Source of the DNA: a bacterium
GTDB taxonomy: Bacteria; UBP7; UBA6624; JBBIMK01
Length of the DNA: 32,000 bases
Direction of reading: 5' to 3'
Assembly (NCBI GenBank): GCA_037444445.1
Contig: JBBIMK010000018.1
Location: forward strand, 1 to 32,000
In this document: positions 1,447-27,202 of the stretch, in pieces
How positions within the stretch are numbered: position 1 is the first letter of the stretch
Layout of the letters: each line of letters opens with the position of its first letter
Position numbers and translations under genes: made by a program
The notes under the pieces: generated by a model
Told to the model about the DNA's origin: nothing
The model's input: only the letters and a program-made list of their open reading frames with translations
Database searches by the model: none

Positions 1447-1475
1447 TTGACAGGAAGAAATTGGTTTAATACAAT
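1447..1475 (+). promoter_or_regulatory. Near-consensus sigma70-type promoter (TTGACA-17 nt-TACAAT)
   Basis: TTGACA lies at 1447-1452, followed by an exact 17 nt spacer and TACAAT at 1470-1475. The predicted transcription start is around 1482. Confidence 0.5.
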
Positions 1476-1564: not shown

Positions 1565-3550
1565 ATGACGCAAAGAGTAGAAGAAAAGATAAGGGAAATA
1601 AACGAAGAGGGAAAGAGGGAAAGAGAAAAGGAAAAAGAAGTCGGGAAGAAGGGCACTCGTTCCGACAGAAAGGGCTGGTGCAGATGGCAGGACCTTTCTC
1701 TTCGCCTGATTTATAGCCGGGACCAGAGTGAAGTGCCGGGCTTTCTGAAGTGGTTCATCCGCTGTGTGCCTGGTGAAATTGTGCAGCCAACCCGCATTGA
1801 AGAGATTCAGGAGATTTTACGGGAGGCATATCAGCGAAGGATTCCGGTGACCCCGGGGGCGGGGCGGTCCTTTGCCCTCGGCGGCGCCATTCCCACAAAA
1901 GCCGGCATCTGTTTAGACCTCTCGTTTATGAACCGCATCCTGGAGGTAAATCCGAAAGAAGAATGGGTGCGGGTGGAAGCCGGCGTCCGCTGGTCCACCC
2001 TTTCCGATGAACTCAAAAAATATGGCTTCGCTTTACGCTCCTACCCTTCTTCCTGGTTCTCCACGGTGGGAGGATGGGTGAACACTGGCGGTTATGGGAT
2101 TGGCTCTCTGAAATATGGAAGCCTCAAAGAGAATGTAATTGGGCTGAAAGTGGTGACGCCGAAGGGAGAACTCTGGAAGGTGGTGCCCGGAATGCCGCAG
2201 TTTGACCTGTTCTTCGGGAGCGAGGGACAACTGGGCGTGATGGCAGAAGTTCGGCTTCTCATTCGCAAAAAGCCTGCCACCGTTTTCCCTCTACTCTTCG
2301 CCTTTTCATCCGACCGGGAAGCACTCCAGGCAATCCAGAATCTTCTGTCAGCGGGCTTACGCCCCTTCTACTTAATTTTCCTGGACAGGGAGAAAATGAA
2401 GGAAATGAATATTTTAATGAGACAACCGCTCCTGCCCGAAACTCCCTGTGTTTTCACAATAGCAGAATCGGAAGACGAGGAGGAAATGATTAGAAATGTT
2501 CTGGGAGGCGGTGCTTCAACAGACACCACCGGGATTTCACTTCGCTCTGCAGACGCACCAGTGGCACAAACAGGCGGGGAACAGCAGGCGGAGTATCTGG
2601 CAGAATATCTCTGGAATGAGCGGTTTTTCCCTCTTAAGGCGAAGAAGTTTGGACCTGGCTTGCTCGCCTCGGATGTGGTGGTATCTCCGAAAATGGTTCT
2701 TCCGTATATTCAAAGATGCAGAAAAGTGGGAAAAGCCTACGGCATAGAGGTAGGCGTAGAAGCCCATTTTTCCACTCCCAACTCCGCCCTTGTTCTTCCC
2801 ACATTCACGACGGACTCTCGCAAACCTTTACTGTACTTACTCCATTCGGCTCTTGCCTATCAACTGGCGTCTTCAGGCATAAAAATGGGCGGAAAGCCCT
2901 ATGGAATCGGGCTGTGGTATAAGCGATTTCTGAATGGGAAATGGAAAAGAGAAGAAGAGATGCAATGGAAGGAGAGAAAAGAGTTCAAGAGGAAATTGGA
3001 CCCACTGGGGCTACTGAATCCAGGGAAGAGTTTCGGGAGGGGATATAACCCACCCGGGGTGCCTTTTTTTGCCCGTCCGATTCTCGCTTTGCTCAGCCGT
3101 CTACTGGTAAAGAAATTACAAGGTAAAGCCAGAAAAATGTCCCCTCCCCTCGCACCTGCCGAAAATGTGAAGTGGACAGGGTACAGGGAGAGCACCCCCT
3201 TGCTTCATTCCATCTATGCCTGTTCTGCCTGCGGGTCTTGCTATGCCAAATGCCCGGCTTACCTGGTGACACGAGACGAACGAACCACAGCCCGGGGAAA
3301 ATTGCAACTGGCAAGCGAAATTCTTTTGAAAAGGAGCACGAAAATTACGGCGGAAGAAGCCCAAACCATGTTTCTGTGCATGCACTGCGGGTTCTGCACG
3401 GAGGTCTGTCAAAGCGAGCTGGAGTTAGAAACCACCTGGAATCTCCTGGAGGCAGAACTGGAGAAACGCTACGGCAAGCCGCTGAAACGCATAGAAGAAT
3501 TCGTGAAGAAGGTGGAGGAGAGTGGCGTGATGCTCGCCACAAGGCCGTGA
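1565..3550 (+). CDS. FAD-linked oxidase (GlcD / D-lactate dehydrogenase-like) fused to a C-terminal 2x[4Fe-4S] ferredoxin-type module
   Basis: FAD-binding PCMH-type N-terminal signature: GEIVQPTRIEEIQEILREAYQRRIPVTPGAGRSFALGGAIP and FGSEGQLGV. FAD-oxidase C-terminal signature: KLDPLGLLNPGK. Two Cys clusters follow, CSACGSCYAKCP and CMHCGFCTEVC, with no CCG-type domain after them. The start is uncertain. ATG 1538 and 1544 sit inside the terminator loop and ATG 1565 directly follows the T-run. The first roughly 40 codons are a K/E/R-rich product of a polypurine tract. Confidence 0.8.
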   Translation: MTQRVEEKIREINEEGKREREKEKEVGKKGTRSDRKGWCRWQDLSLRLIYSRDQSEVPGFLKWFIRCVPGEIVQPTRIEEIQEILREAYQRRIPVTPGAGRSFALGGAIPTKAGICLDLSFMNRILEVNPKEEWVRVEAGVRWSTLSDELKKYGFALRSYPSSWFSTVGGWVNTGGYGIGSLKYGSLKENVIGLKVVTPKGELWKVVPGMPQFDLFFGSEGQLGVMAEVRLLIRKKPATVFPLLFAFSSDREALQAIQNLLSAGLRPFYLIFLDREKMKEMNILMRQPLLPETPCVFTIAESEDEEEMIRNVLGGGASTDTTGISLRSADAPVAQTGGEQQAEYLAEYLWNERFFPLKAKKFGPGLLASDVVVSPKMVLPYIQRCRKVGKAYGIEVGVEAHFSTPNSALVLPTFTTDSRKPLLYLLHSALAYQLASSGIKMGGKPYGIGLWYKRFLNGKWKREEEMQWKERKEFKRKLDPLGLLNPGKSFGRGYNPPGVPFFARPILALLSRLLVKKLQGKARKMSPPLAPAENVKWTGYRESTPLLHSIYACSACGSCYAKCPAYLVTRDERTTARGKLQLASEILLKRSTKITAEEAQTMFLCMHCGFCTEVCQSELELETTWNLLEAELEKRYGKPLKRIEEFVKKVEESGVMLATRP

Positions 3551-3585
3551 AATACAGTGAAGAAGAAGGAGTGAAGAATGAAGCA

Positions 3586-6500
3586 ATGAGGCAGGCAAAA
3601 AATCCGCATTCTACATTTCACATTCCGCAATCCGCGGAGTGGGAACGATATCACATCCCGGTTAAAACTGCACTAACTCCGTGGGAACTGGGGAAATTTA
3701 TGGTGGAGCGGGCGGATTCCTGCATCAACTGTGGGAAGTGCATCTCCGCCTGCATTTATGGGGTTCACTTCCGTCGGCCGGACGATGTGCGAAGGCTGGA
3801 TGAACCCAGGCACTCTCTGTGTCGGGACTGCTTCCGGTGCGTGGAAGAGTGTCCGGTGGGGGCGCTGAAGATTCTTCCCAACCCCGTGTATCTGGGCATC
3901 GGCGATGAGTTCATCCCGCCGTGGCTGGTACAACTCATCTGGCAGCAGGCGGAGACGGGGCGGGTGCCCGTTTCCGGCGCCGGCTTCCGGGGACCCTTTG
4001 GCGGACCCGGTTGGGACGGAATGTGGACCGATATGAGCGAGATTGTTCGCCCCACCCGGGATGGCATCCACGGCAGAGAATATATCTCCACCGATGTGGA
4101 AATTCGTCGGAATCTGCCGTATCTAAAATTTACCCCCGATGGTCGCCTGGCTTCACCCATTCTTCCTTCCCTGCGCCTGCCCATTCCCATCCTTTTTTCT
4201 TTGCCCTCCGTGGCGGAGCACCCTCGCCCTGCTCTTTCTTTGCTTCGGGCCTCCAAACTACTGGGCACTCTCGCCATTCTGGCGGAGGAAGATTTTTCTC
4301 CGGAATTGGAAGAGTTCACGGATTCCATCTTTCTCCATTTGCGAGAATGGCGGACAGAGAAGAAAACATGGGCAAAAGCCTTTGAAGTAGATTATCAGGA
4401 AGGATTTCATCGGATGGTGGAGCAGATTCGCCACGATATGCCTGGAGCAATTCTCTCCGTTCGCCTGCCCCTCATCCCCTCCGCAGAGTCAGCGATAGAG
4501 GACATCCTGAAGGAGAATGTGGAAATGGTCCATCTCGTTGCAGACCCCAATGGGTTTGAAACTCCTCCTTTACAGACAGGGCTGTTTGAGGAAGGAACAA
4601 GGGGAAAGAGGCGAGCCTTCATTCGGGACCGTCTGACAGAAATCCACCGGCATCTGGTGAAGTTAGCGGTACGAGATGAAATCACCCTGGTAGCGGAGGG
4701 CGGAATCATCGCTCCCGAACATATTGCGAAGGCCATCCTTTGCGGGACAGATGCCGTGGTTCTTGACCGCACCCTCCTGATTGCTCTCGGCTTCACCGCC
4801 ACGGGAAGACGCCTCATCCCAAATGCTATGGATGTGGAATGGGGCACCCAGCGCATTCTCAATCTAATGAACGCTTACCGGGACCAGTTACTGGAAGTTG
4901 CTGGCGCGATGGGCATCCGGGATATTCGTCGGATGCGAGGAGAGATGGGCAGAGCCATGTTTCAGGCTGACCTGGAGCGGGAATTCATTGAGGCTCTGGA
5001 AAATCCCATCCCGCTTCTCACAAAGGAAAAACTACAGGCGGAGGTAAGCCAGTCGCCTGCACACCTCATTTCCATACCCGAGGCAAAGCCTGCCCCACTG
5101 CAGGATATGTATCGCAGGCCTATTGGCGTGGCGAAAGTGATTCGTGCAGATTCGTGCATCCATTGCGGAATATGTGTGAAACTCTGCCCCTTTGGTGTTC
5201 ATATCCGCCCGGACGGTTATAAGCGAGTTCTTCCACCGCTGGATGACCTATGTATCGGGGAAAAATGCAAAGAGAAAGATTTCTATTGTATTAATAAATG
5301 TCCCGTGGATGCCCTGTTTCTGGTGCGAAGCCCCCACATAGATACTCTGGGCGACGCTCGCTGGACCCCCGAACTCATCCTCTCCAACTGGTATATGTCG
5401 GAAACAGGCACAGCACCGGAACACCTGGAATATAAGGTGGGGCAATCGGGGGGTGGGTTAGATAAACTCCGCTTCACCTTTGAACTGCCCGTCAACAGCG
5501 AAGATACTGGGGCTAAAAAGTTGCAGAATGAAGAATTAAAAAGTTCCAGTGTTCAACCGAACCATTCAAAGCCCACGGTTAAGAGTCCACATCCTCCGAC
5601 CAAAATCTCTACGGCATTGATGTTGAATCGGCGCAGCGATGGGCCTCGTATAGTCATTCCCATCCCCATTTATGGAGGTGGAATGTCTTTTGGCTCCATC
5701 GGCATCACCACGATGCTTGGCAGAGCAAAAGCTGCAAAGGAGTGGAATACCTTTGTTTCCACGGGCGAGGGCGGCTATCCTGCAGAAATTCAAGTCTACG
5801 ATGACCACATCATCACCCAGGTGGCAACCGGGCTGTTTGGCGTGAAAGAAGATACGCTGAAACGGGTGAGAATCATTGAATTCAAGTATGCCCAGGGTGC
5901 GAAGCCGGGGTTAGGGGGGCACCTCCTGGCAGATAAAAACACCCCCGTCGTAGCAGAGCAAAGGGAAGCGGTGCCCGGCACTTCCCTGTTTTCCCCCTTT
6001 CCCTTTCACTCTGTGTATTCCGTGGAGGACCATAGAAAGCATGTAGACTGGCTGAAAGCCACCAATCCCAACGCTCTCGTGTCGGTGAAAGTTTCCACGC
6101 CCACGGATGTGGATATGGTTGCCATAGGAATTTACTATGCCGGGGCGCACATCATCCATTTAGACGGCGGATATGGCGGTACAGGAGCCGCACCAGAAAT
6201 TGCCAAGAAAAATATCGCCATGCCCATAGAGTTTGCCATTCCGAAGGTTCATCGCTACCTGCTTCAAGAAGGGGTGAGGCACAAAGTGGTGCTGATGGTT
6301 TCCGGGGGAATCCGCACTGCCTATGATGTAGCGAAATGTATCGCTCTCGGAGCTGATGGCGCCATCATTGGAACCGCCGAACTCGTGGCAATGGGTTGCG
6401 TAAGATGCGGGAACTGCGAATCCGGCAGAGGATGCCCCAAGGGTATCACCACCACCGACCCGGAACTCTATCCACTCATTCCCGAAAACTGGGGGGCTCA

Positions 6501-6624
6501 GAGAATTATCAACCTTTATATCGCCTGGCATCATCAACTCTGCCATATCCTGCAAAATCTTGGAATGACCGACATCCGTGAACTGGTGGGAAGAACTGAC
6601 ACACTGAGATACCTGGAGAATTAA
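3586..6624 (+). CDS. Glutamate synthase FMN-domain (GltB domain 2, archaeal-type)-like protein with tandem [2x4Fe-4S ferredoxin + TIM barrel] duplication
   Basis: C-terminal half: IPIPIYGGGMSFGSIG, FKYAQGAKPGLGGHL, HLDGGYGGTGAAP, MVSGGIRTAYDVAKCIALGADGAIIGTA, and the Cys cluster CVRCGNCESGRGCPKGITT. Two ferredoxin modules are present: CINCGKCISAC...CRDCFRCVEECP at about 3721-3860 and CIHCGICVKLCP...CINKCP at about 5150-5310. The N-terminal half aligns to the same barrel but lacks its motifs. The track ORF starts at 3172 and overlaps the upstream gene. The likely start is ATG 3586 (AGGAG at 3567-3571) or the GTG at 3547 in a GTGA overlap. Confidence 0.85.
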   Translation: MRQAKNPHSTFHIPQSAEWERYHIPVKTALTPWELGKFMVERADSCINCGKCISACIYGVHFRRPDDVRRLDEPRHSLCRDCFRCVEECPVGALKILPNPVYLGIGDEFIPPWLVQLIWQQAETGRVPVSGAGFRGPFGGPGWDGMWTDMSEIVRPTRDGIHGREYISTDVEIRRNLPYLKFTPDGRLASPILPSLRLPIPILFSLPSVAEHPRPALSLLRASKLLGTLAILAEEDFSPELEEFTDSIFLHLREWRTEKKTWAKAFEVDYQEGFHRMVEQIRHDMPGAILSVRLPLIPSAESAIEDILKENVEMVHLVADPNGFETPPLQTGLFEEGTRGKRRAFIRDRLTEIHRHLVKLAVRDEITLVAEGGIIAPEHIAKAILCGTDAVVLDRTLLIALGFTATGRRLIPNAMDVEWGTQRILNLMNAYRDQLLEVAGAMGIRDIRRMRGEMGRAMFQADLEREFIEALENPIPLLTKEKLQAEVSQSPAHLISIPEAKPAPLQDMYRRPIGVAKVIRADSCIHCGICVKLCPFGVHIRPDGYKRVLPPLDDLCIGEKCKEKDFYCINKCPVDALFLVRSPHIDTLGDARWTPELILSNWYMSETGTAPEHLEYKVGQSGGGLDKLRFTFELPVNSEDTGAKKLQNEELKSSSVQPNHSKPTVKSPHPPTKISTALMLNRRSDGPRIVIPIPIYGGGMSFGSIGITTMLGRAKAAKEWNTFVSTGEGGYPAEIQVYDDHIITQVATGLFGVKEDTLKRVRIIEFKYAQGAKPGLGGHLLADKNTPVVAEQREAVPGTSLFSPFPFHSVYSVEDHRKHVDWLKATNPNALVSVKVSTPTDVDMVAIGIYYAGAHIIHLDGGYGGTGAAPEIAKKNIAMPIEFAIPKVHRYLLQEGVRHKVVLMVSGGIRTAYDVAKCIALGADGAIIGTAELVAMGCVRCGNCESGRGCPKGITTTDPELYPLIPENWGAQRIINLYIAWHHQLCHILQNLGMTDIRELVGRTDTLRYLEN

Positions 6625-6626
6625 AC

Positions 6627-9398
6627 ATGGAAGGAACAAACCGCAAGAACCTCCTTTCCTTCCACCCTGTGCTGAATGACACGCACAGAAATATGGACGG
6701 CACGGAGGCTGAAGGTGGATGCGGTGTTATCGGGCTGGCTTGCACAGAGCCCGTGGCAGGAAAACATATCCTTCAGCCCTCCCTGCAGATGCATAATCGG
6801 GGGAATGGGAAAGGGGGCGGGCTTGCCGCAGTGGGGCTGAATCCCACCCAGATGATGGTCAGCCCGGAAACCCTGGAACAGGATTACCTGATTCAGGTTG
6901 CCCTTCTGGACCCCACTGCAAAAAAAGAGGTGGAGTCCCTGTTCCTGGAACCTTACTATGAGATTCATCAGGGATACGAGATTCCCCATGTGGCAGACTA
7001 CCACGACATTTCAGGGCTGGAGGTTCGTCCTCCAGACATCCTCCGCTATTTCGTTCGCGTCAAACCCTCGGTTCTGGAAGAATTCGTCATCTCCTGCCGG
7101 AGGCAGAGAGGGCTACGCCCAAAAATTCCACTTCCCGCCTCACTTGCCGGATACGAGGATGAGTTCGTGTATCAAAATACCTACCGTCTGAATCAAACTC
7201 TGTATGCATCGTTGGGCGAAAAACGGGCTTTCGTCCTCTCTCACGGGAAAAATATGCTGGTATTTAAAATTGTGGGCTATGCGGAGCAGGCAGTTTATTA
7301 CTATCAACTGGAGAACCTCCAGGCACACATCTGGATTTCCCACCAGCGGTATCCCACCAAGGGGAAGGTCTGGCATCCTGGCGGTGCCCATCCTTTCGTT
7401 GGGCTACACGAAGCCCTGGTACACAACGGAGATTTTGCCAATTACCATTCTATTTCTGAATATCTGAAGCAAAGGGGCATCTACCCCCTATTTCTCACCG
7501 ACACAGAAGTTTCTGCCTTATTATTTGATTTATTGAAGCGGGTCTACAGGTATCCACTGGAGTATGTGATAGAGGCGCTGGCACCGACAACGGAGCGGGA
7601 TTTTGTTCTCCTACCGCCTGAGAAGCAGGAAATCTATCGGGCAATCCAGGCGACACACATACACGGCTCCCCGGATGGTCCCTGGTTCTTCATCATTGCC
7701 CGGAATGACCCGTTAGAAAAAACGATGCAACTGATAGGAATTACCGACACATCCATGCTTCGCCCGCAGGTTTTCGCCCTCGCTCACACACCTGAAGGCA
7801 GTGGATTTCAGCCGGTTCATCTGGGCTTGATTGCTTCCGAAAAGCAAGCCATTGATGCTGTGCTACGGAGTCTTCGCTCGGAAGACCTTCGCTTCTCCCT
7901 TTTCGCGGATCAATACTGGAACGCCCGCGGCGGTAGCCACACCGACGGCGGTGCCTTTATCTTCTCCCTCAAGAACCAAAAGTTATCTTGCACCGATAAA
8001 TTCGGAAAAGTTGTGAAACTGCCTGATGACCAGTGGTGTACTTATAACCCCGACTGGATTCAGTCCTGGGAAAGGGAACATCCGGAAGAATTGAAGCAGA
8101 GTCAGGAAACTATGAGAAGATGGGTGGAATTCTTCGGGCGGAGGGAGGATCCCTTCCTTTTTTTCCAGTTTCTAAATGGTGAAATAGAATTCCCTCATTC
8201 AGGTTATCACAAATGGCACCGGTTGAAAACCATGGGGTATTCCTCTTACGAGCACCTGGGGCAGGCTCTACGGGAGTGGGCTGAGCAAAGTGTAAGACAG
8301 GGTCTATTCGCCATTGAGGTTCTTACTCTTTTAATTGACCGCAGGTATGACATTGGGGCGAAGAGGAGATGTTCCCTGCTCACCCTCCTTCACGGGGCCC
8401 TGTACAAAATTTTTCAGGATATACCCTGTATAGATGAGCAGAATGGAAAATGGGAAAAGGGGGAAGAGAATCAGGCATTTTTTACTTATCCACCGCCTGC
8501 CTCACTGGAGGCTCATTTAGTGAGAGTGGATTGGAAGAGGCGAGAAACATTGAGCCGGGCTCCCTCCCCCACCAGTGTTCTGGTAGTGGATGTGGGTAAC
8601 TTCCCCCCGGAAGGTGAGGGAAGCATCTCGGAATTTCTGGTGAAAGGATACCGCATGGGCTGGAGAGAATTTATCACTTATAACTGGCAGGGTCAGAGGT
8701 TCTGCGGTTGCGGGATGGGGTCCAACTCTCGCGGTGTTCGCATACAGGTCTACGGCTGCCCTGGCGACTATCTGGCCAGCGGGCTGGACGGCGGTGAAAT
8801 CATCGTTCACGGTAGTGGGCAGGACCAGCTCGCCCAGATTATGAAAGACGGCAAACTGGTCATCCACGGCGATGTGGGGCAGACATTTTTATACGGAGCC
8901 AAGGGGGGCGAAATCTATGTCCTCGGCAATGCCGCTGGCCGTCCCCTCATCAACGCCGTGGGGAGACCCAGAGTCGTGATCAACGGCACCTGCCTGGATT
9001 ATCTCGCTGAATCCTTTATGGCAGGAAACCCGTTAAAAGGGGGCGGGTTCGTTATCCTCAATGGCGTTTACTTTGATGAACACGGCAGGCTGAAAGAAAT
9101 GGACACCCCTTATCCCGGCGGGAATATCTTCTCCCTGGCCTCCGGCGGCGCCATCTACCTTAGAGACCCCCAAAAAAGAGTAGAAGCCAATCAACTCAAC
9201 GGAGGTCGTTTCGCCTCCCTCTCCGGGGATGACTGGCAACTCATCCTCCCTTATCTGCAAGAGAATGAAAGACTATTTGGTATTCGTGTAGAGGATTTAC
9301 TCACGGTAGATGGAGAAAGGCTTCCACCGCAGGAGGTCTACCGCAAGGTGGAGGCTGTGCCGTTAAGCATTCTCGCCACCATCACTGCCCACCAGTGA
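6627..9398 (+). CDS. Fusion of a class-II (Ntn) glutamine amidotransferase domain and a glutamate synthase GXGXG domain (GltB domains 1 + 3-like)
   Basis: N-terminal part: GGCGVIGLA (candidate nucleophile Cys32), HNRGNGKGGGLA, HQRYPTKG...AHPF...LVHNGDFANY. C-terminal part: GQRFCGCGMGSNSRGVRIQVYGCPGDYLASGLDGGEIIVHGSGQDQLAQIMKDGKLVIHGDVGQTFLYGAKGGEIYVLGNAAGRPL, which shows the repeated GXGXG-type beta-helix pattern. ATG 6627 lies 9 nt after GGAG and 2 nt after the upstream stop. Confidence 0.85.
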   Translation: MEGTNRKNLLSFHPVLNDTHRNMDGTEAEGGCGVIGLACTEPVAGKHILQPSLQMHNRGNGKGGGLAAVGLNPTQMMVSPETLEQDYLIQVALLDPTAKKEVESLFLEPYYEIHQGYEIPHVADYHDISGLEVRPPDILRYFVRVKPSVLEEFVISCRRQRGLRPKIPLPASLAGYEDEFVYQNTYRLNQTLYASLGEKRAFVLSHGKNMLVFKIVGYAEQAVYYYQLENLQAHIWISHQRYPTKGKVWHPGGAHPFVGLHEALVHNGDFANYHSISEYLKQRGIYPLFLTDTEVSALLFDLLKRVYRYPLEYVIEALAPTTERDFVLLPPEKQEIYRAIQATHIHGSPDGPWFFIIARNDPLEKTMQLIGITDTSMLRPQVFALAHTPEGSGFQPVHLGLIASEKQAIDAVLRSLRSEDLRFSLFADQYWNARGGSHTDGGAFIFSLKNQKLSCTDKFGKVVKLPDDQWCTYNPDWIQSWEREHPEELKQSQETMRRWVEFFGRREDPFLFFQFLNGEIEFPHSGYHKWHRLKTMGYSSYEHLGQALREWAEQSVRQGLFAIEVLTLLIDRRYDIGAKRRCSLLTLLHGALYKIFQDIPCIDEQNGKWEKGEENQAFFTYPPPASLEAHLVRVDWKRRETLSRAPSPTSVLVVDVGNFPPEGEGSISEFLVKGYRMGWREFITYNWQGQRFCGCGMGSNSRGVRIQVYGCPGDYLASGLDGGEIIVHGSGQDQLAQIMKDGKLVIHGDVGQTFLYGAKGGEIYVLGNAAGRPLINAVGRPRVVINGTCLDYLAESFMAGNPLKGGGFVILNGVYFDEHGRLKEMDTPYPGGNIFSLASGGAIYLRDPQKRVEANQLNGGRFASLSGDDWQLILPYLQENERLFGIRVEDLLTVDGERLPPQEVYRKVEAVPLSILATITAHQ

Positions 9399-9607: not shown

Positions 9608-11779
9608 ATGATGCGAGAATTACGGGTTTATGAATATGCAAAAGAGAAGGGATTGTCCAGTCAGGAGGTGCTGGAGATTCTTCGTTCAAAAGGGGTGGCA
9701 GTGAAGTCCCATGTGAATAAGTTAACAGAAGAGCAATGGAAGGTGGTAGACAGGGAACTGGCATTACGGGCGAAAGAAAAAGAAAAGGCGCCCCCTCCAG
9801 TTGTTGAGCCTCCCCGGGTGGAAAAGAAAGAGGAACTTTCGGAGCCTCCTGCTTTGCCTCCGGAGGAGCCAGTGAAAGTGAGTGAACTTCCCCCAAAACT
9901 TTCCCGGGAAAAGGGAGAAATGCCATTGGGTGTTCGGACGAGGCCAATTTTTAAAATCCCCTCAAAAGTCCGGAAGACTCCCGAGACAGTAGTGAAGCCT
10001 CCAGAGCGTAAGAAAGCCTTCCGGGTGAAACCCGGTATTACTTTGAGTGAGCTCTCCCGAACCATTGGCGTCTCAATCCCGGATATGATGGATTTTTTGA
10101 TGAAGCAGGGCTTTTTGATACCCCAGAATAAGCCATTACCGGAGGAACTTATCCTACAAATTGCTCGGCATTTCAAGGTTGAGATAGAACTTCAGAAGAG
10201 AGTGGAAGAAGCGGGGGAGATCCCGGATGATTCAGTGGCAGAGCGGATGACGGAACGCCCGCCGATAATCACCGTGATGGGGCATGTAGACCACGGAAAA
10301 ACTCTGCTGTTGGACGCCATTCGGAAAAGTCGGGTGGCAGAGAAGGAAGTGGGGGGAATCACCCAGAAAATTGGCGCTTACCAGGTGGAAGTGAAAGGGA
10401 AGAAAATCACTTTCATTGACACACCCGGGCATAAAGCCTTTACATCTATGCGGGCTCACGGAGCCCGGATTACGGACATTGCCGTGCTTGTGGTGGCCGC
10501 CGATGAGGGAGTGAAACCTCAAACTCTGGAGGCTCTGGACCATATCCGCGCCGCTCAGGTGGAGATGATTGTGGCAGTGAACAAAATTGACAAGCCCAAT
10601 GCTCAAGTAGAGAAAGTGAAGAAAGAGCTGTCCGACCTGGGCGTGGTACCTGATGACTGGGGCGGGGATGTGCTGTTCGTCCCCGTCTCTGCCAAAACGA
10701 CGGAGGGGATTGATTCTCTCCTTGAAGCCATCCTGATTGTGGCGGACCTGTTAGAGTTAAAAGCGGACCCGGAGGCACGCCCCCGCGCCACCGTGATTGA
10801 AGCCTCCCAGAGTAAAGAGTTCGGGAAAAATGCCACCGTGATTGTGGAAAATGGAACTCTGAGAAAAGGAGACCTCGTAGTGATTGGCTCAACCTGGGGA
10901 CGGATTAAGGTCTTGATGGATGAGAATCTCAATCCTGTGAAAGAAGCACTTCCTGGCACGCCCGTGAGGATAGTGGGTTTGGCCGGTGTGCCGAAGCCGG
11001 GAGACCGCCTCTGGAAAGCGGCGGATGAACGGGAAATACGAAGATGGATGGAAAGTCAAAAAGAACCTGTGGAGGAAGAGTCCCTGCCCCGAACGGTCAA
11101 ACTGGAAGATTTCATGGAGCGCTCCAGAGAAGAGAAAATCAAAGAACTGCGCCTCGTCTTGAAAGCATCCTCCCAGGGGGCACTGGAAGCTCTGAAAAAA
11201 GAAACGGCAGAAATACCCACAGGCGAAATGGAGTTAAAAGTCCTCCGGACAGGTGTGGGCGACATCACCAGTTCAGATGTCCTCCTGGCGGCCGCTTCCA
11301 GGGCTGTCGTGATGGGTTTTGATGTGGGTGTAGAGCCTTCGGCAGTTCAAGAGGCTTCCTGCCACGGCGTAGACATCCGAATATACTCCGTAATTTTTGA
11401 AGTGGTAGAAGATGTGAAGAGAGCCCTTTTGGGATTGGCGCCTCCGGAGGAGGTGGAGGAAGAAATCGGCGAGGCGGAAGTGAAGGCCATCTTTCGGATT
11501 ACCACTCAGGGGGCTGTCGCGGGCGCTCTGGTTCGCAAAGGAGTGCTGGAACGCGCCCGAAAAATCGTCGTCTACCGGAATGGTTCCGACATCTTTACCG
11601 GCATCCTTTCCTCTCTCCGCCGCTTCACCGAAGATGTCCCCCGGGTGTCTGCAGGCTATGAATGCGGCATCGGCATTGAAGGCATCAAAGACCTTCAGGA
11701 AGGCGACCTGATCCGATGCTACAAAATGACGGAGAAAAAGAAAACAGCCGGAGAAATCCTCAGCGCCCCTACCGAATAA
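9608..11779 (+). CDS. infB: Translation initiation factor IF-2
   Basis: IF2 N-terminal motif: RVYEYAKEKGLSSQEVLEIL. GTPase motifs: GHVDHGKTLLLD, DTPGH, NKID. The protein is 723 aa with a typical charged linker. Confidence 0.97.
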   Translation: MMRELRVYEYAKEKGLSSQEVLEILRSKGVAVKSHVNKLTEEQWKVVDRELALRAKEKEKAPPPVVEPPRVEKKEELSEPPALPPEEPVKVSELPPKLSREKGEMPLGVRTRPIFKIPSKVRKTPETVVKPPERKKAFRVKPGITLSELSRTIGVSIPDMMDFLMKQGFLIPQNKPLPEELILQIARHFKVEIELQKRVEEAGEIPDDSVAERMTERPPIITVMGHVDHGKTLLLDAIRKSRVAEKEVGGITQKIGAYQVEVKGKKITFIDTPGHKAFTSMRAHGARITDIAVLVVAADEGVKPQTLEALDHIRAAQVEMIVAVNKIDKPNAQVEKVKKELSDLGVVPDDWGGDVLFVPVSAKTTEGIDSLLEAILIVADLLELKADPEARPRATVIEASQSKEFGKNATVIVENGTLRKGDLVVIGSTWGRIKVLMDENLNPVKEALPGTPVRIVGLAGVPKPGDRLWKAADEREIRRWMESQKEPVEEESLPRTVKLEDFMERSREEKIKELRLVLKASSQGALEALKKETAEIPTGEMELKVLRTGVGDITSSDVLLAAASRAVVMGFDVGVEPSAVQEASCHGVDIRIYSVIFEVVEDVKRALLGLAPPEEVEEEIGEAEVKAIFRITTQGAVAGALVRKGVLERARKIVVYRNGSDIFTGILSSLRRFTEDVPRVSAGYECGIGIEGIKDLQEGDLIRCYKMTEKKKTAGEILSAPTE

Positions 11780-11783
11780 AGCC

Positions 11784-12065
11784 ATGTTTACGGGCAGTGG
11801 TTATGTGATTCTGCACTTGCTCCATGCAGGCTCCTTAAAGGAGAAAAGGCGAATGGTCAAGCACATTCTGGCGAACCTTCAGTTGAAATTCAAAGTGGCC
11901 GTTGCAGAAGTGGGATATCAAGATAAATGGCAGATGTGCAAAATTGCCTTCGCCACCGTGGGAGCCCGCCACAAGGATGTAGAACAATTTGCCACCCGAA
12001 TTCTCAATTACCTGGATGACCTGGAGGGTATAGAAGTTCTGGAAAGGAATCTACAGGTGATATAG
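11784..12065 (+). CDS. DUF503 (YlxP-like) protein
   Basis: 93 aa. GSLKEKRRMVKHILANLQLKFKVAVAEVGYQDKWQ is typical of the DUF503 family, and the position between infB and rbfA is conserved. Confidence 0.8.
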   Translation: MFTGSGYVILHLLHAGSLKEKRRMVKHILANLQLKFKVAVAEVGYQDKWQMCKIAFATVGARHKDVEQFATRILNYLDDLEGIEVLERNLQVI

Positions 12066-12425
12066 ATGAAACTTTATAGAAGAGAAAAAATAGAACGGAT
12101 CTTTCGGGATGACATCAGCCGTGCCATATCCCGAATGAAGGATCCCCGTCTGGGATTTGTTACCCTCACCCGTGTAAAACTCTCGGAAGACTTCAAGCAC
12201 CTGAAAGTAGGTGTGAGCGTCCTCGGCGACCGGGAAATGAAAAAACACTCCCTCCAGGCCCTCCACTCCGCTACCGGCTTTATCCGCTCTTACCTGAAAA
12301 AACACATCCATATCCGGATTATCCCCGAACTTCATATCGTGCTGGATGAAAGGTTTGAAGAAGCTGAACGTGTCTATCAAATCCTGCGCTCCATCCAGAA
12401 AGAAAAGCAAGATGAAGCAGGATAA
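12066..12425 (+). CDS. rbfA: Ribosome-binding factor A
   Basis: 119 aa. RREKIERIFRDDISRAISRMKDPRLGFVTLTRVKLSEDFKHLKV matches the RbfA KH-like fold signature, and the gene lies in infB-rbfA-truB synteny. Confidence 0.93.
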   Translation: MKLYRREKIERIFRDDISRAISRMKDPRLGFVTLTRVKLSEDFKHLKVGVSVLGDREMKKHSLQALHSATGFIRSYLKKHIHIRIIPELHIVLDERFEEAERVYQILRSIQKEKQDEAG

Positions 12426-13389
12426 GATTCTACCTCTTTTGCAGAGCGCTCGGAATATCTTGCTGGTTACCCATAAAAACCCGGATGGAGATGGAGTAGG
12501 AGCAGTGGTAGCTCTCTCTTTATCTCTGGAAAGGGCTTCCAAAAGGATTTACCCTGTTATTGAGGATCCCATTTCTGCCGTCTATTCCTCTTTAGCGGGT
12601 GTGGAAAAGATACAACGAACGCTTCCACCGGATACAGACAAGATAGACCTGGGCTTTAGCCTGGACGCCGCCGATATGATGCGGTTTACACCGACCGTCC
12701 GTGAAGTCCTGGAACACCGCCGATTTCCGCTGGTGAACCTGGACCATCATCCCGGAAATCAGGGGTTTGGGGATATCAACATACTGGACGCGCAAGCCTG
12801 CTCCACTGCCATGCTGGTCTTCCGCTTTCTGAAGGAAGTTCAACTTCCCATCACCCCGGACATTGCCTCCGCTCTGTATGTGGGATACCTGATTGACACC
12901 GGGCGGTTTTCCTTCCAGAACACCACCGCTGAAACCCTGCGGGATGCGATGGAACTGGTTCAACTGGGAGCGGACCCCTATCGCATGAATTCACTCCTGT
13001 ATTTTTCTCTTCCCCGGTCGCACTTGAAACTTCTTGGGCGGAGCCTGGAACGCTTCTCCCTCCTGAATGGAACACGCCTGGGATGGAGTCAACTTCACCG
13101 ACAGGATTTCCAGGATGTAAATGCAGACCCTTCGGATGTGGAGGGAATCCCTGAGTTCCTTCTGACGGGTCAGGATGTGGATATTATTCTTTTATTCGTG
13201 GAGAGCATACAGGATGACCGCATACGCATAAGTTTTCGCTCCAAGGGCGACATAGACATCTCTCATCTGGCGAGGGCATTGGGGGGCGGTGGCCACAGAA
13301 ATGCCGCCGGCGCTCAGATGCCAGGACCCCTCCAGGAAGTGATCCAGTATGTCCTCCGTCAAGCCTCTACCTTTCTGTCTACTCCATGA
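12412..13389 (+). CDS. nrnA: DHH/DHHA1 phosphoesterase (NrnA-type oligoribonuclease / pAp phosphatase)
   Basis: Motifs: HKNPDGDGVGA, NLDHHPGN, GGGHRNAAGA. The start is taken at ATG 12412 (MKQDKILPLL), which overlaps the rbfA end by 14 nt. The track start at 12346 lies deep inside rbfA. Confidence 0.88.
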   Translation: MKQDKILPLLQSARNILLVTHKNPDGDGVGAVVALSLSLERASKRIYPVIEDPISAVYSSLAGVEKIQRTLPPDTDKIDLGFSLDAADMMRFTPTVREVLEHRRFPLVNLDHHPGNQGFGDINILDAQACSTAMLVFRFLKEVQLPITPDIASALYVGYLIDTGRFSFQNTTAETLRDAMELVQLGADPYRMNSLLYFSLPRSHLKLLGRSLERFSLLNGTRLGWSQLHRQDFQDVNADPSDVEGIPEFLLTGQDVDIILLFVESIQDDRIRISFRSKGDIDISHLARALGGGGHRNAAGAQMPGPLQEVIQYVLRQASTFLSTP

Positions 13390-14264
13390 TTGGATTCCTC
13401 GGCTTGATTAAACCCCCTTTTATGTCTTCCTTTGATGTGATACGCTATCTTCGGCGTCTGGGCGTGAAAGAAAAAATGGGACATACAGGCACCCTGGACA
13501 ACCTGGGGATGGGAGTTCTGACGCTGGCGGTGGGGAAAGCCACCCGCCTCGTAGAATTCTATATGCGTGAGAAAAGATACTGCGCCGAAATTACCCTGGG
13601 CATCACCACCGATACTCACGATGTGGAAGGGAAAGTCCTGGCAAATCGGGTAGAGGAAATCCCTTTATACACCCGGGAGGACATCCTGAAATCGCTGGCC
13701 GGGTTTCACGGAGAAATGGAGCAGGTTCCCCCCGAGCACTCTGCGAAAAAACTGGATGGTCATCGCGCCTATGAACTCGCCAGAAAGGGGGTGGCAGTCC
13801 ACCTGAAGCCACAGAGAATTAAAATTCACCGGATAGAACTCCTGAGCCTCAGTAACGAGAAGCCGCAGCGACTTCTGGTAGATGTCCATTGCTCCACTGG
13901 CACATATTTACGGGGAATAGCACGGGACCTGGGCGAAAAAATTGGCTCCGGTGCCACCCTCACTTTCCTGGTCCGGACTTACGCTTGCCCTTTTTCTATT
14001 GAAGAGTGCGCAACTCTGGAAGAAATTCAGAAAGCCGGCGGGATTTCCCCCTTCCTGAAACCTCCAGATGTGGGGCTCACCGACTTTCCCCGCTTCACCC
14101 TCACAGAATCCGAAAAAAGGCTCCTCTTAATGGGGAAAAAATTACGCGTCGGCAGAGGCTTCTCCTACCGATACTACCGCCTGTATTCCCCCTCTAACGA
14201 GTTCCTTGCTATCGGAGTGAAACAGGGCTCGTTTCTCAGTCCTTATAAAAGGATGGTGTCTTGA
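13386..14264 (+). CDS. truB: tRNA pseudouridine(55) synthase
   Basis: GHTGTLDNLGMGVLTLAVGKATRL contains the catalytic Asp motif. The start forms an ATGA overlap with nrnA. Confidence 0.95.
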   Translation: MIGFLGLIKPPFMSSFDVIRYLRRLGVKEKMGHTGTLDNLGMGVLTLAVGKATRLVEFYMREKRYCAEITLGITTDTHDVEGKVLANRVEEIPLYTREDILKSLAGFHGEMEQVPPEHSAKKLDGHRAYELARKGVAVHLKPQRIKIHRIELLSLSNEKPQRLLVDVHCSTGTYLRGIARDLGEKIGSGATLTFLVRTYACPFSIEECATLEEIQKAGGISPFLKPPDVGLTDFPRFTLTESEKRLLLMGKKLRVGRGFSYRYYRLYSPSNEFLAIGVKQGSFLSPYKRMVS

Positions 14265-14267
14265 ATC

Positions 14268-15380
14268 ATGAAAGAGGATGATTTTCACGACCTGGTGAAT
14301 CCCCATATTCTGAAATTATCCCCCTATGTTCCGGGGAAGCCCATAGAGGAAGTTCAGAGAGAACTTGGATTGAAAGAAATCCACAAACTGGCTTCCAACG
14401 AAAGTTGTGTGGGAACTTCCTCCCTGGCTCAACAGCGACTGATGGAATATGCCAGCCAATTATATCTATACCCGGATAGCACCTGCTATTCCCTCCGCCA
14501 GGCACTGGCAAAAAAACATCAAGTGGGAATGGACTCCATTCTGGTGAGCAATGGAGCGGTAGAAATTCTTTATTTCCTGGCAGTGGCTCTATTGAGTTCC
14601 CAGGATGAGGTGATTGCGGGAGAAGTTTCATTCGCCATGTATCCGGTGGTCACCCAGTTAATGAACGCCACACTGGTAAAGACCCCGATGACAGATTTCC
14701 GGCTGGATTTGAAAGCTATGGCTCGTGCGGTCACGGGTCGCACGAAAGTAATTTTCATTGACAATCCCAACAATCCGGCGGGCACCATTGTCACCCGTCA
14801 GGAAGTGGAAACCCTGCTGGAAATGATTCCGCCCCGGGTGCTGGTGGTTTTTGATGAAGCCTATGTGGAATTTGTAGAGTCCCCTGATTTCCCGGACACC
14901 CTCTCGTATTTGAGGGACGGAAGGCGAGTGGCTGTTCTACGGACCTTCTCCAAAAACTATGGGCTGGCGGGATTACGGGCTGGTTATATTCTGGGGCCTC
15001 CCGCTTTGATGGAGATTCTCAGAAGAGTGCAACCACCGTTTAATGTGAATGCAGCCGCCCAAGCGGCTGCCCTGGCTGCCTTAGACGATGACACCCATCT
15101 GAAGACCACGGTCAAAGTCACCCGAAAAGAAAAAAGGTTCTTATATGAAGGGTTTGACCGCCTGCATCTGTTTTATGTACCCAGTGAGAGCAATTTTATC
15201 CTGGTAAACACAGGAATTAATGCCATAGAATTCTTCCAGCAACTCCTCCAGGAAGGAATCATCGTTCGCCCGGTGGGACCGGCACTTCCCACCTTTGTTC
15301 GCATCAGCGTAGGCTCTCACGAGGCGAACAACAGACTTCTGGAGAGCATTGAGAAGATTCTCGCTGGCGCTATGGAATGA
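14268..15380 (+). CDS. hisC: Histidinol-phosphate aminotransferase (class II PLP aminotransferase)
   Basis: Motifs: LSPYVPGKPIEEVQRELG, KLASNES, NPNNPAGT, and FSKNYGLAGLRAGY with the PLP lysine. Confidence 0.85.
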   Translation: MKEDDFHDLVNPHILKLSPYVPGKPIEEVQRELGLKEIHKLASNESCVGTSSLAQQRLMEYASQLYLYPDSTCYSLRQALAKKHQVGMDSILVSNGAVEILYFLAVALLSSQDEVIAGEVSFAMYPVVTQLMNATLVKTPMTDFRLDLKAMARAVTGRTKVIFIDNPNNPAGTIVTRQEVETLLEMIPPRVLVVFDEAYVEFVESPDFPDTLSYLRDGRRVAVLRTFSKNYGLAGLRAGYILGPPALMEILRRVQPPFNVNAAAQAAALAALDDDTHLKTTVKVTRKEKRFLYEGFDRLHLFYVPSESNFILVNTGINAIEFFQQLLQEGIIVRPVGPALPTFVRISVGSHEANNRLLESIEKILAGAME

Positions 15381-17062
15381 AATATCCTTTTTCCCTGCTC
15401 CTTGTCGTTTCTATCCTCTCGCTTTCCGCTATTCCTCAACTTTCTGAACATCTTTCCTCTACCCACTTTGACATCTATTTTGACCCTCAGGATACCAGTG
15501 TGGTTACAGAACTTCTGGCGCAGGCCGAAAGCGATTTCACTCTACTCAGTGCGCTCTGGGGGCAGGCTCCTCTTCAAAAAATTCAAATTATCCTTCATCC
15601 CAATGCCCTATCCCTGTGGGAAGAATCAGAAAATAATGCCAGTTCACTCCGGGGCGAGCCTTATACTTCCCCGGACGGCACTCTGCATTTCCTCTCACCC
15701 CGGGATGGATGGCGAACCTCACGGTCCCTATTTCAATCCACCTTGCTCCATGAACTCGGGCACGCTTTTATGAGCCTGGAGAATATCGGAAGCGAGTCTC
15801 TCCCACTCTGGTTTCGGGAGGGCATGGCAGAATTACCCGTAACCATCAAAAATATCCCCCGTCAACAGGACTACCTGCGTGATGCCGTGCTAACCGGGAA
15901 GTTCCCGGACCTATTGAAAGATGCCAGTGTTTCCCGGCGGCTTTTTTATGCCGCCAGCGATTCTTTTCTCACCTGGATGCGGAATAAACAAGGGGAGGGC
16001 GCATTCAAAAGCCTTCTAACGCAGTTGAAAACTTTGCCCCTGGAGCAAGCATGGTCCTCCGTTTTTCAGCAATCTCTTTCTCAGTCGTTCAACGCCTGGC
16101 AACAAGAAATCACCTCCAGTTTTCTGAAACATTTTAACGGCATGCCACTCCGGCCAAGAAGCCAGCGTATATTTTCTAAATATCCTGTTCTGGACTATCG
16201 GATTAAAAATTCCCTGATCATTCTCCGCCTTCCGGAAGGGCAGGACATTTTTCTGTATGACCCGAGTAAGGGCACTTTGAAAAACCTCACGAATACTCCC
16301 GGTGCACTGGAAGTGGACCCGGAAATAGCGGGCGATACCCTTTACTTCTCTTCCTCCCGCCGGGACATGGATTTTGACCTGTGGGAAGTTCATATAGATG
16401 GCACAGGGCTTCAACTACTCACCACCTCTCCGGGCGGTGATTTCTCTCCACGGTCCCATCCGCTAATTCGCGAACGGATTGCTTTCATCTCATCCTCTTC
16501 AGGCAACCCCGACCTCTTTCTTTATGATGCCAGAAAAATCATTCCCCTGACTTCTACCCCGGAAGAAGAAACAAACCCTCAATGGGATGCTTCCGGTGAT
16601 TTCCTTTACTTCCTGCGCACAGGAAATGAGAACACTGCCTTGCTTCGCATCAAACTCGCAACCTTTCAAACCCAGAAACTCCCCTTCAACGGGAATATCG
16701 TGCAATTTGCCAACCACCCTCTCCTGGATGTCACAGCCTTCCTGGGAGAGGTGGAGAAAGCTACGAACCTGTATGAATATGTGTGGACGCAGAACCGACT
16801 GGACCAACTGACTATGGACGGCGCCAGAAAAACAGAAGTCGCCTGGTCCGATGATGGCCACTTCCTGGCTTATACACAGGAAATTCAGGGTCAACTGGAC
16901 ATCTATCTGTATGATATGGAGGCTTCCTATTCCCGCCGTCTCACCCGGACTGCATTGGACGAAACTAACCTGCAATGGAGTAGCCGGGGGAGTTTATACT
17001 TTTTAACCGGTGAACTGTGGAAAAAAGAACTGTACCGAATCTTTCCAATAAGGGGGAGATGA
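15377..17062 (+). CDS. Secreted peptidase MA-type (HExxH) domain protein fused to TolB-like (PD40) beta-propeller repeats
   Basis: N-terminal signal-like MKYPFSLLLVVSILSLSAIP. Zinc motif LLHELGHAF followed by WFREGMAE. The C-terminal half carries repeated PD40-like units (DFSPRSHP...IAFISSSSGNPDLFLYD, NPQWDASGDFLYF, EVAWSDDGHFLAYT, NLQWSSRGSLYF). The start forms an ATGA overlap with hisC. Confidence 0.7.
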   Translation: MKYPFSLLLVVSILSLSAIPQLSEHLSSTHFDIYFDPQDTSVVTELLAQAESDFTLLSALWGQAPLQKIQIILHPNALSLWEESENNASSLRGEPYTSPDGTLHFLSPRDGWRTSRSLFQSTLLHELGHAFMSLENIGSESLPLWFREGMAELPVTIKNIPRQQDYLRDAVLTGKFPDLLKDASVSRRLFYAASDSFLTWMRNKQGEGAFKSLLTQLKTLPLEQAWSSVFQQSLSQSFNAWQQEITSSFLKHFNGMPLRPRSQRIFSKYPVLDYRIKNSLIILRLPEGQDIFLYDPSKGTLKNLTNTPGALEVDPEIAGDTLYFSSSRRDMDFDLWEVHIDGTGLQLLTTSPGGDFSPRSHPLIRERIAFISSSSGNPDLFLYDARKIIPLTSTPEEETNPQWDASGDFLYFLRTGNENTALLRIKLATFQTQKLPFNGNIVQFANHPLLDVTAFLGEVEKATNLYEYVWTQNRLDQLTMDGARKTEVAWSDDGHFLAYTQEIQGQLDIYLYDMEASYSRRLTRTALDETNLQWSSRGSLYFLTGELWKKELYRIFPIRGR

Positions 17063-17078
17063 TAAGGTGAGCAGAAGA

Positions 17079-19028: not shown

Positions 19029-19134
19029 CTACTACCCTCCCTGAGTCTGTGAGGCCGTATGTTCTAATCTCCGAAGATATGAACCTTTTTTTCTTTCACC
19101 TGTATTCTGCCCGCTGTGCATTCAGGTTCAAACC

Positions 19135-20262: not shown

Positions 20263-20264
20263 AG

Positions 20265-20285
20265 CCCCGCCAAAATATAGCGGGG
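20265..20285 (+). terminator. GC-rich hairpin just after the glycosyltransferase stop (no U-tract)
   Basis: CCCCGC (20265-20270) pairs with GCGGGG (20280-20285) around a 9 nt loop. It is followed by AACTGG, so it is not a canonical intrinsic terminator. Confidence 0.25.
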
Positions 20286-22349: not shown

Positions 22350-22354
22350 AGGAG

Positions 22355-23253: not shown

Positions 23254-23300
23254 AAAAGACAGGGGGTAATGAACGAGAGAAAAAAGAAGGTGAAGAAGAA

Positions 23301-27199: not shown

Positions 27200-27202
27200 A
27201 TC

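Follow-up and report, generated by a model that had tools for sequence, protein, structure and literature searches.

The three-gene cluster

We analyzed a 32-kb window of a bacterial contig of approximately 39.5 kb (JBBIMK010000018.1), in which three genes on the forward strand, here named A, B, and C, fill positions 1565 to 9398. Gene A encodes a flavin adenine dinucleotide (FAD) protein that ends in two iron-sulfur (Fe-S) clusters, and B and C together carry the domains of the large subunit of glutamate synthase (GltS). The pairing of A with this split glutamate synthase is conserved in at least 80 species from both prokaryotic domains. Our favored reading, in which we have modest confidence, is that the three proteins are subunits of a single split "archaeal-type" glutamine:2-oxoglutarate amidotransferase (GOGAT), with A as its redox input.

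The original prediction for this DNA, made from the sequence alone, described three closely packed genes on the same strand, and the open reading frames (ORFs) bear this out. B may start at a GTG (3547) that overlaps the stop codon of A (3548-3550) as GTGA; the first in-frame ATG of B is at 3586, and only 2 nucleotides (nt) separate the stop of B from the start of C. An alternative ATG start for A, at 1538, would give a protein of 670 residues. The 1025-residue form of B is 100% identical to database protein P0001. Positions of the genes and their domains are collected in Table 1.

Table 1. Features of the A-B-C cluster and its upstream region (positions in the 32-kb window)
Feature	Position	Strand	Details
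Sigma-70-like promoter, TTGACA-17-TACAAT	1447..1475	+	11/12 match; consensus match only; upstream of A
Gene A, PCMH/VAO-type FAD flavoprotein with C-terminal 2x[4Fe-4S]	1565..3550	+	661 residues; Pfam, NCBIfam; identical to database protein P0121
A, FAD_binding_4, with invariant FSTVGGW motif	1778..2179	+	Pfam, 8e-36
A, FAD-oxidase_C cap/substrate domain	2291..3028	+	Pfam, 3.8e-12
A, Fer4_8 dicluster, CxxCxxCxxxCP ... CxxCxxCxxxCQ	3212..3418	+	Fer4_8/Fer4_17, 1.5e-9
Gene B, [ferredoxin dicluster + GltS-type barrel] x2	3547..6624	+	1025 residues from GTG 3547; 1012 residues from ATG 3586
B, first 2x[4Fe-4S] ferredoxin domain	3700..3867	+	Fer4_7/Fer4_9/Fer4_10; 8 Cys invariant in family
B, N-terminal barrel, degenerate paralogue of the FMN domain	3868..5118	+	~400 residues; weak Glu_synthase and Glu_syn_central matches
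B, second 2x[4Fe-4S] ferredoxin domain	5137..5328	+	Pfam; homologue alignment
B, Glu_synthase FMN/synthase domain, GAKPG..R motif and C-x2-C-x2-C-x5-CP	5635..6567	+	PF01645, 4e-98
Gene C, Ntn (class II) glutamine amidotransferase + poorly conserved linker + GXGXG beta-helix	6627..9398	+	923 residues
C, amidotransferase domain, beginning at catalytic Cys32 (EGGCGV)	6720..8036	+	Homologue alignment; preceded by a propeptide of ~31 residues
C, GXGXG domain	8706..9188	+	PF01493, 5.7e-13

Conservation of the gene order

Relatives of A were sought in one genome per GTDB species with a 35-sequence alignment of A as the sole query. More than 480 stretches encoded a relative, and the best 80, from approximately 52 bacterial and 28 archaeal metagenome-assembled genomes (MAGs), were kept and then searched with B and C of the window. 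In 79 of these 80 loci, B was found directly 3' of A in the same orientation, the lone exception ending 32 nt after A, and C followed B in 60, which are all the loci that extend far enough. The 20 loci without C, including the one without B, end no more than 203 nt beyond their last match; they run out of sequence and thus provide no counter-example to the A-B-C order. That the FAD/Fe-S gene should be conserved together with the GltS-like genes had been set beforehand as a check on the original prediction, which these counts support very strongly.

The 80 genomes include Dehalococcoidia, Aminicenantes, Bipolaricaulota, Fraserbacteria, Acidobacteriota, Planctomycetota, and Verrucomicrobiota among bacteria, and Thermoplasmata, ANME-1, and Bathyarchaeia among archaea. 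The cluster also occurs in complete genomes of Aminicenantes (e.g., CP070750.1 and CP070825.1). Where a gene for the N-terminal half of B (B_N) was recognized, the distance from the stop codon of A to the first aligned residue of B was typically -64 to +160 nt, with many loci showing an overlap of -4. Neighboring ORFs were clustered in two separate sets, the first of 82 loci and the later of 80. Besides A, B, and C, no gene was common to more than 14 loci. Because the other flanking genes vary while A-B-C stays, the adjacency is not ordinary synteny, and the three genes very probably form one functional unit.

The probable glutamate synthase core

Conservation within each protein was scored in alignments of 35 A-family members, 34 homologues of B, and 13 homologues of C. 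B had been described as a domain-2 protein of glutamate synthase, binding flavin mononucleotide (FMN) and Fe-S and carrying four ferredoxin-type motifs. The motifs are present, but the N-terminal half is also a barrel paralogue, which had been overlooked. The two halves align with each other over their full length (blastp E=8e-33, 24% identity), and the AlphaFold2 model of B (predicted local distance difference test, pLDDT, 82.2) aligns over approximately 950 columns with the GltS alpha subunit and with ferredoxin-dependent GltS (Fd-GltS), that is, with the central plus FMN domains of GltS. From these two results, the N-terminal barrel corresponds to the central domain of GltB, so that B and C together contain all four GltB domains. 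The earlier count of three glutamate-synthase modules was therefore right as to their presence and is here corrected to four.

The FMN domain of B aligns to residues 905-1170 of Azospirillum brasilense GltB, including the cluster cysteines (E=2e-52). Its AMGC-x2-C-x2-C-x5-CP motif aligns with the ligands of the GltB 3Fe-4S cluster, and a fourth Cys is present. The equivalents of Synechocystis GltS residues E903, Q969, K972, and R992 are invariant in the 34 homologues of B. For C, both the Pfam matches and the motifs EGGCGV, MHNRGNGKGGG, HQRYPT.G, HNGDFANY, and TDTE, which are invariant in 13/13 aligned homologues, agree with its earlier description as a fusion of a glutamine amidotransferase and a GXGXG domain; the amidotransferase region gives weak matches to GATase_6, GlmS, and PurF. 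A propeptide precedes the catalytic Cys in GltB too.

More than 1100 homologues of B, from many phyla, were found among the candidates scored, and databases name them only "glutamate synthase-related" or "alpha-hydroxy-acid oxidizing protein". The nearest homologues outside the window share 52-55% identity, and many lineages encode B as two genes of approximately 500 residues each. The N-terminal barrel of the window's B has lost a C-x2-C-x2-C-xn-CP motif (LLIALGFTATGRRLIP, 4815-4886, approximately residues 410-433 of the 1012-residue form), which most distant homologues keep at the position of the synthase cluster. By a crude regular expression, this Cys cluster of B_N was lost in 45 and kept in 18 proteins encoded with A, and lost in 3 and kept in 35 encoded without A; the pattern misses many of the clusters in the C-terminal half (B_C) and the split is confounded by phylogeny, and we did not use it as evidence.

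Nitrogen context

In 14 loci, the gene immediately before A, on the same strand, encodes glutamine synthetase (GS; GlnA), and the Amt and PII genes lie upstream in 7-9 loci. NrpR-like regulators recur beside the cluster in relatives, and loci of the Aminicenantes type have a divergent gene for an Lrp-type regulator upstream of A. Genes of other glutamine amidotransferases (purF, carA, hisH/hisF) often lie right after C. GS, Amt, PII, and NrpR are the surroundings expected of a GS-GOGAT system, which argues against an N-methylglutamate synthase. Taken together, the conserved catalytic residues and these recurrent neighbors indicate that B and C are in all likelihood a glutamine-dependent glutamate synthase.

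GltD had been reported as not visible in the window, and a tblastn search with a GltD/NfnB-type protein likewise gave no match in the 32 kb, an absence that is local to this part of the contig; the GltD-type beta subunit (Fer4_20 + Pyr_redox_2) that accompanies NADPH-dependent GltS is thus not encoded alongside B and C here. The same 32 kb gave no tblastn matches to GS, Amt, PII, MetF, MetV, MvhD, or Hdr proteins. A gltD homologue beside the cluster in relatives, which the original prediction had named as a finding that would speak against it, was seen in only 6 of the 80 loci. Four of these are from Thermoplasmata (L052, L058, L072, and L080) and carry A; an Nfn-like pair, comprising a PyrK/NfnA-like (DHODB_Fe-S_bind + NAD_binding_1) and an NfnB/GltD-like (Fer4_20 + Pyr_redox_2) protein, starts approximately 40-230 nt past C (e.g., L058:11087-13567). 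The other two (L023 and L082, MAGs of Opitutaceae/Verrucomicrobiae) have a canonical-looking gltB (an ORF of 1544 residues in L082) and gltD just upstream of A-B-B-C, and would have two glutamate synthase systems side by side.

A protein of approximately 530-550 residues with a partial Glu_synthase match (PF01645, 3e-13) is encoded near B-C in L002, L022, L032, L042, L100, L101, L125, L141, L145, and L146, often adjoining an NrpR-like regulator. It may be another uncharacterized GltS-related enzyme of nitrogen metabolism.

The FAD/iron-sulfur protein

Gene A had been described as a FAD-linked oxidase ending in two CxxCxxCxxxC(P) clusters with no CCG domain, and the Pfam scan, which returned no PF02754, agrees. 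The motifs C553-x2-C-x2-C-x3-CP and C605-x2-C-x2-C-x3-CQ are invariant in 35/35 family members. Proteins of the family are approximately 600-680 residues long, with the FAD domains and the dicluster; CCG is absent from all listed full-length members, and the sole CCG-bearing match (P0236, 903 residues) is longer and weaker-scoring. Hosts are bacteria and, among archaea, Thermoplasmatota, Methanomassiliicoccales, and ANME-1. The layout of GlcF, HdrD, and LldF is therefore shared only in part, with Fer4_8 present and CCG (PF02754) absent. An exit of two clusters that ends without CCG is the layout expected of a subunit that exchanges electrons, in one direction or the other, with a partner protein. 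A fusion of the glycolate oxidase subunits GlcD and GlcF was also considered for A and ruled out on account of the missing CCG domain and metal triad.

The AlphaFold2 model of A (pLDDT 81.8; predicted TM-score, pTM, 0.83) matches the folds of mouse LDHD (mLDHD; TM-score normalized to target length, TMt, 0.82), isopod D-LDH, LctD of the Ldh-Etf complex, AGPS, and D2HGDH, and the profile of the A family finds LctD at 1e-50 and mLDHD at 5e-48. In mLDHD, His398, His405, and Glu442 coordinate Mn2+, the carboxylate is bound by Arg347, and His443 acts as the base in catalysis; alanine at any of these residues abolishes activity (PMC10589216). The His398 position is H in 27/35 members of the A family. 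The His405 position is A or G in 30/35 (A408 in the window), the Glu442 position is P in 34/35 (P445), and the His443 position is Y in 35/35 (Y446). The carboxylate clamp is kept as R353 in 34/35. Against the NCBIfam model TIGR00387 (glcD), A scored 150 bits, below the cut-off of 567.9. A thus has the fold and the Arg of the D-2-hydroxy-acid dehydrogenases and lacks their metal triad, their catalytic His, and a glcD score above threshold. Its likeness to GlcD is one of fold only, and the family is a distinct PCMH/VAO subfamily with a predicted metal-free Arg/Tyr(/His) site.

The N-terminus of A (1565-1700, residues 1-45) is rich in Lys and Glu (EEKIREINEEGKREREKEKEVGKKG...), is not conserved, and is partly of low confidence in the model; homologue alignments begin at approximately residue 41-50.

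Loci without A

Metagenome contigs were also scanned with an alignment of C, the first member of which came from a cluster without A (L002), and 29 loci had enough upstream DNA to be evaluated. B-B-C was intact throughout. The same-strand position immediately before B encoded MvhD + MetV/MetF in 18/29 loci, only MetV/MetF in 2/29, and only MvhD in 3/29; A was present in 3/29, and 3/29 had none of these modules. MvhD and/or MetV/MetF therefore occupy the position of A in 23/29 loci, with identities confirmed by Pfam. Because different modules are found in the same position, the slot before B appears to be a docking place for interchangeable flavin/Fe-S modules. GS, Amt, and PII genes are again found upstream in several loci of the MvhD-MetVF type.

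The order mvhD(FlpD)-metV(DUF5981)-metF(MTHFR) before B-B-C was seen in L002, L083, L089, L095, L102, L108, L117, L131, L133, L151, L152, L155, L159, and others, and in L099, L127, L133, L157, and L159 C is followed by hdrC, hdrB, and an hdrA-gltD fusion (HdrL-like), or by a subset of these. With mvhD-metV-metF upstream and hdr genes downstream, the B-C core sits inside a cluster of the MetFV-HdrABC-MvhD type. The full-text literature searched gave no account of B-C embedded in metFV/hdr clusters.

Proposed mechanism

The predicted cofactors are FAD and two clusters in A, and four ferredoxin clusters, one synthase cluster, and FMN in B, for a total of seven Fe-S clusters and two flavins. As the original prediction had noted, A lies where an electron donor would be expected. 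It carries FAD and two [4Fe-4S] clusters, as GltD does; on balance, we think it the electron-input subunit, a non-homologous analogue of GltD. C would hydrolyze glutamine at its N-terminal Cys, its GXGXG domain being a structural part, and the ammonia would be channeled to the synthase site of B. B would supply the central and FMN/synthase domains, where 2-oxoglutarate would be aminated and the imine reduced by FMN. The four ferredoxin clusters of B and the cluster of its synthase domain would wire FMN to the protein surface, and the electron path would run from the substrate to the FAD of A, the clusters of A, the ferredoxin domain or domains of B, the synthase-domain cluster, FMN, and finally 2-iminoglutarate.

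Several points weigh against this scheme. That A, B, and C form a complex, and the direction in which electrons would flow through it, we infer from domain content, residue conservation, and conserved gene order. The active site of A is unlike that of any characterized enzyme, so no donor can be named. The catalytic roles of the GltS residues are those we take from the Synechocystis Fd-GltS structures, and at the position of GltS Q978 all B homologues have His. The window itself has no GS, Amt, or PII neighbor. GltD-type genes coexist with A in 6/80 loci; A is therefore not simply present instead of GltD everywhere. B-C occurs without A in many lineages, so the core chemistry does not depend on A, and the ferredoxin domains of B could accept electrons from free ferredoxin.

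For the donor of A, a small carboxylate-bearing organic substrate is most likely, given that the clamping Arg is kept and that VAO/PCMH enzymes with this cap domain generally act on such substrates. It would probably be oxidized in a way other than the Mn2+/His mechanism of the D-lactate, glycolate, or 2-hydroxyglutarate dehydrogenases. Alternatively, the donor may be NAD(P)H or a different carrier. That A oxidizes a carboxylate metabolite and passes the electrons through all seven Fe-S clusters to the FMN of the synthase site, bypassing pyridine nucleotides, F420, and free ferredoxin, is a tentative proposal that we consider rather doubtful. In the extreme version, D-2-hydroxyglutarate or another 2-hydroxy acid would be oxidized and its product aminated, a redox-neutral "hydrogen-borrowing" reaction. 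In a broader form, B-C would act as a universal acceptor core for lineage-specific modules, namely A, MvhD-MetVF-HdrABC, Nfn-like, and FrhB-like proteins.

Alternative explanations

B-C alone could be a ferredoxin-dependent glutamate synthase to which A is an accessory module, whether a bifurcating or confurcating inlet or outlet, a redox sensor, or a regulator. B-C is indeed seen without a partner, with MvhD only, or with MvhD-MetVF; genes for HdrC/B and an HdrA-GltD fusion directly follow C in 5 loci, NfnAB-like genes follow C in 4 loci that carry A, and the two full ferredoxin domains of B would suit docking of an external carrier. However, the cluster in the window has no bifurcation-type flavin site of the HdrA, NfnB, or EtfB type, a single FAD with two clusters is typical of a simple dehydrogenase input module, and the strict A-B adjacency with overlapping stop and start codons fits a stoichiometric subunit, and we regard an accessory role as unlikely. 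The donor first proposed for A was D-lactate or glycolate, so that oxidation of the acid by a 2-hydroxy-acid dehydrogenase would itself drive glutamine-dependent reductive amination. In sequence and in fold, A is most similar to LctD, mouse LDHD, D-LDH, and D2HGDH, TIGR00387 aligns to A end to end, the counterpart of the carboxylate-binding Arg (Arg353 for mLDHD Arg347) is retained in 34/35, and by our own estimate the coupling is feasible (lactate/pyruvate at approximately -190 mV, with the acceptor couple raised by glutamine hydrolysis). Yet residues that are each essential in mLDHD (PMC10589216) are replaced family-wide, His405, Glu442, and His443 by Ala/Gly, Pro, and Tyr, and the glcD score of 150 is far under 568. 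The FSTVGGW signature, moreover, is that of alkyl-DHAP synthase (AGPS) and not of GlcD/LDHD, and one fermentation acid feeding nitrogen assimilation across ANME-1, Thermoplasmata, Dehalococcoidia, and Aminicenantes would be physiologically odd. The proposal is thus not supported, and a donor of this kind seems quite unlikely.

The cluster could also perform another amidotransferase/oxidoreductase chemistry, such as one like that of N-methylglutamate synthase, or aminate a different 2-oxo acid. N-methylglutamate synthase has the same three domain types, B has an invariant Leu at the position of GltS E975 besides the invariant His at Q978, the NCBIfam GltB equivalog is matched only below threshold, and the generic database names of the family leave room for such a function. 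Against this, the equivalents of K972 and R992, both of which bind the 2-oxoglutarate carboxylates, and the amidotransferase Cys are invariant, and the recurrent neighbors are GlnA, Amt, PII, and NrpR-like genes. Methylamine-utilization genes were absent from the recurrent neighbor clusters of 160 loci, in which no dedicated hidden Markov model (HMM) search for gmaS/mgd was made. N-methylglutamate synthase also needs no external electrons, whereas seven Fe-S clusters and two flavins are predicted here. The nitrogen-assimilation context and the redox modules make the N-methylglutamate synthase alternative of the original prediction improbable, and other chemistry as a whole very unlikely. Identity with MgsABC itself was rejected, since polyferredoxin domains and a FAD/Fe-S partner are present and the neighbors are GS, Amt, PII, and NrpR rather than methylamine genes. 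Finally, A could be a mere neighbor, its adjacency being inherited synteny with no functional link, which is hardly credible given adjacency in 79/79 informative genomes from two domains of life, with the other flanking genes all differing and the stop of A and start of B often overlapping.

Comparison with known systems

NADPH-dependent GltS (GltB+GltD; A. brasilense 1ea0/2vdc/6s6s, Bacillus subtilis 7mfm) has the same four alpha-subunit domains that are found in B and C, and its GltD, like A, carries FAD and two [4Fe-4S] clusters. In the present cluster, by contrast, the domains are split and reordered as [Fd-central-Fd-FMN] + [amidotransferase-linker-GXGXG] (Fd, ferredoxin domain), B has two additional 2x[4Fe-4S] ferredoxin domains, and its synthase motif has four Cys where GltB has three, with His in place of Q978. 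The PCMH/VAO fold of A is unrelated to the two-dinucleotide-binding fold of GltD, and no NAD(P)H site is predicted in A. Fd-GltS (Synechocystis, 1llw/1ofd), with which B aligns, has a single-flavin synthase site that is fed single electrons via Fe-S, as would be the case here, and B-C clusters without A may also use free ferredoxin. Fd-GltS, however, is a single chain of 1500 residues that lacks a flavoprotein partner and has no ferredoxin domains of its own.

Also similar in architecture are the archaeal split GltS systems (FGltS I/II and the FrhB10-linked clusters of ANME), in which a synthase subunit of approximately 500 residues with an N-terminal 2x[4Fe-4S] domain resembles the units of B. 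The amidotransferase and GXGXG parts are separate there as here, although in C they are fused with each other, and in B the synthase unit is duplicated, one copy being the equivalent of the central domain. An interchangeable input subunit is inferred from context in both, although it is FrhB/FdhB-like and F420-binding in the archaeal systems and the PCMH-type FAD protein A in ours. F420H2-dehydrogenase subunits were predicted from gene context as the input of archaeal GltS (PMC3448663; PMC9012536).

Among flavoproteins, the D-2-hydroxy-acid dehydrogenases (mouse LDHD 8jdc, LctD 7qh2_C, GlcD, D2HGDH 6lpn) share with A the three-domain fold, the FAD motifs, and the carboxylate Arg; A lacks their Mn2+ ligands and catalytic His and carries a 2x[4Fe-4S] domain as a fusion. 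The CCG domains into which the Fe-S modules of GlcDEF, LldEFG, and YdiJ extend are missing from A. The A-family profile matches the FAD domain of AGPS (4bby) at E=2e-42; FSTVGGW is common to both, and the metal-free active site of AGPS, which uses Arg, Tyr, and His, is comparable to that of A. The cap domain of A nevertheless aligns better with LDHD/LctD, and AGPS has no Fe-S domain and catalyzes no net redox reaction.

Glutamate synthase, its split archaeal forms, and swappable input subunits are known or already predicted. What appears to be new is the pairing of a split glutamate synthase with a PCMH-type FAD/2x[4Fe-4S] protein; the full-text literature searched gave no account of a GlcD-like FAD/Fe-S protein tied to glutamate synthase, and databases annotate the genes generically. 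We know of no split or F420H2-predicted archaeal GltS that has been characterized biochemically, nor of any experiment that has established the electron donor of the split "archaeal-type" enzymes. Strict anaerobes, among them ANME-1, Thermoplasmata, Bathyarchaeia, Dehalococcoidia, and Aminicenantes, commonly carry such enzymes, and our finding, which is entirely computational, bears on what reduces their glutamate synthases. If the favored reading is true, A-B-C would add a fourth class to the NAD(P)H-dependent, ferredoxin-dependent, and predicted F420-dependent glutamate synthases, with an input subunit of a fold not known to be associated with GOGAT, and the annotation of nitrogen assimilation would change in hundreds of MAGs, where the genes are now labeled "FAD-binding protein", "alpha-hydroxy-acid oxidizing protein", or "hypothetical". 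The MvhD-MetVF/Hdr context of the B-C core suggests that GOGAT may be tied to the bifurcating redox machinery of Wood-Ljungdahl organisms.

Leader and flanking region

The promoter-like site upstream of A is the sole 11/12 match in the region and is correctly placed, and it probably marks the start of the operon, although the number of promoter-type sites in the region is not above that expected from shuffled sequence. Between this site and the start of A, the leader contains a hairpin with a perfect 6-bp stem (GGTTGC-AAGGGAC-GCAACC, 1487-1505), a direct repeat (TGCAAGGG) at 1490-1497 and 1514-1521, and CCCCGAT twice, at about 1524-1530 and 1533-1539. These features at 1487-1540 may be an operator or leader element. 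Rfam gave no riboswitch before the operon and no match for the leader; its only match was a tRNA-Leu(CAG), at 27203-27289. No terminator-like site was found between C and infB.

Two very hydrophobic ORFs (327-782 and 770-1267) lie just 5' of the operon promoter, and the first 2 kb of the window are 43% G+C compared to approximately 52% elsewhere. Downstream, positions 9608-27289 hold an ordinary housekeeping block, identified from the ORF translations, with infB, rbfA, a DHH phosphoesterase gene, truB, hisC, dnaX, recR, pdxS/pdxT, tmk, holB, and a PSP1-like gene. In a relative (L001), an infB-DUF503-rbfA group also lies near A-B-C.

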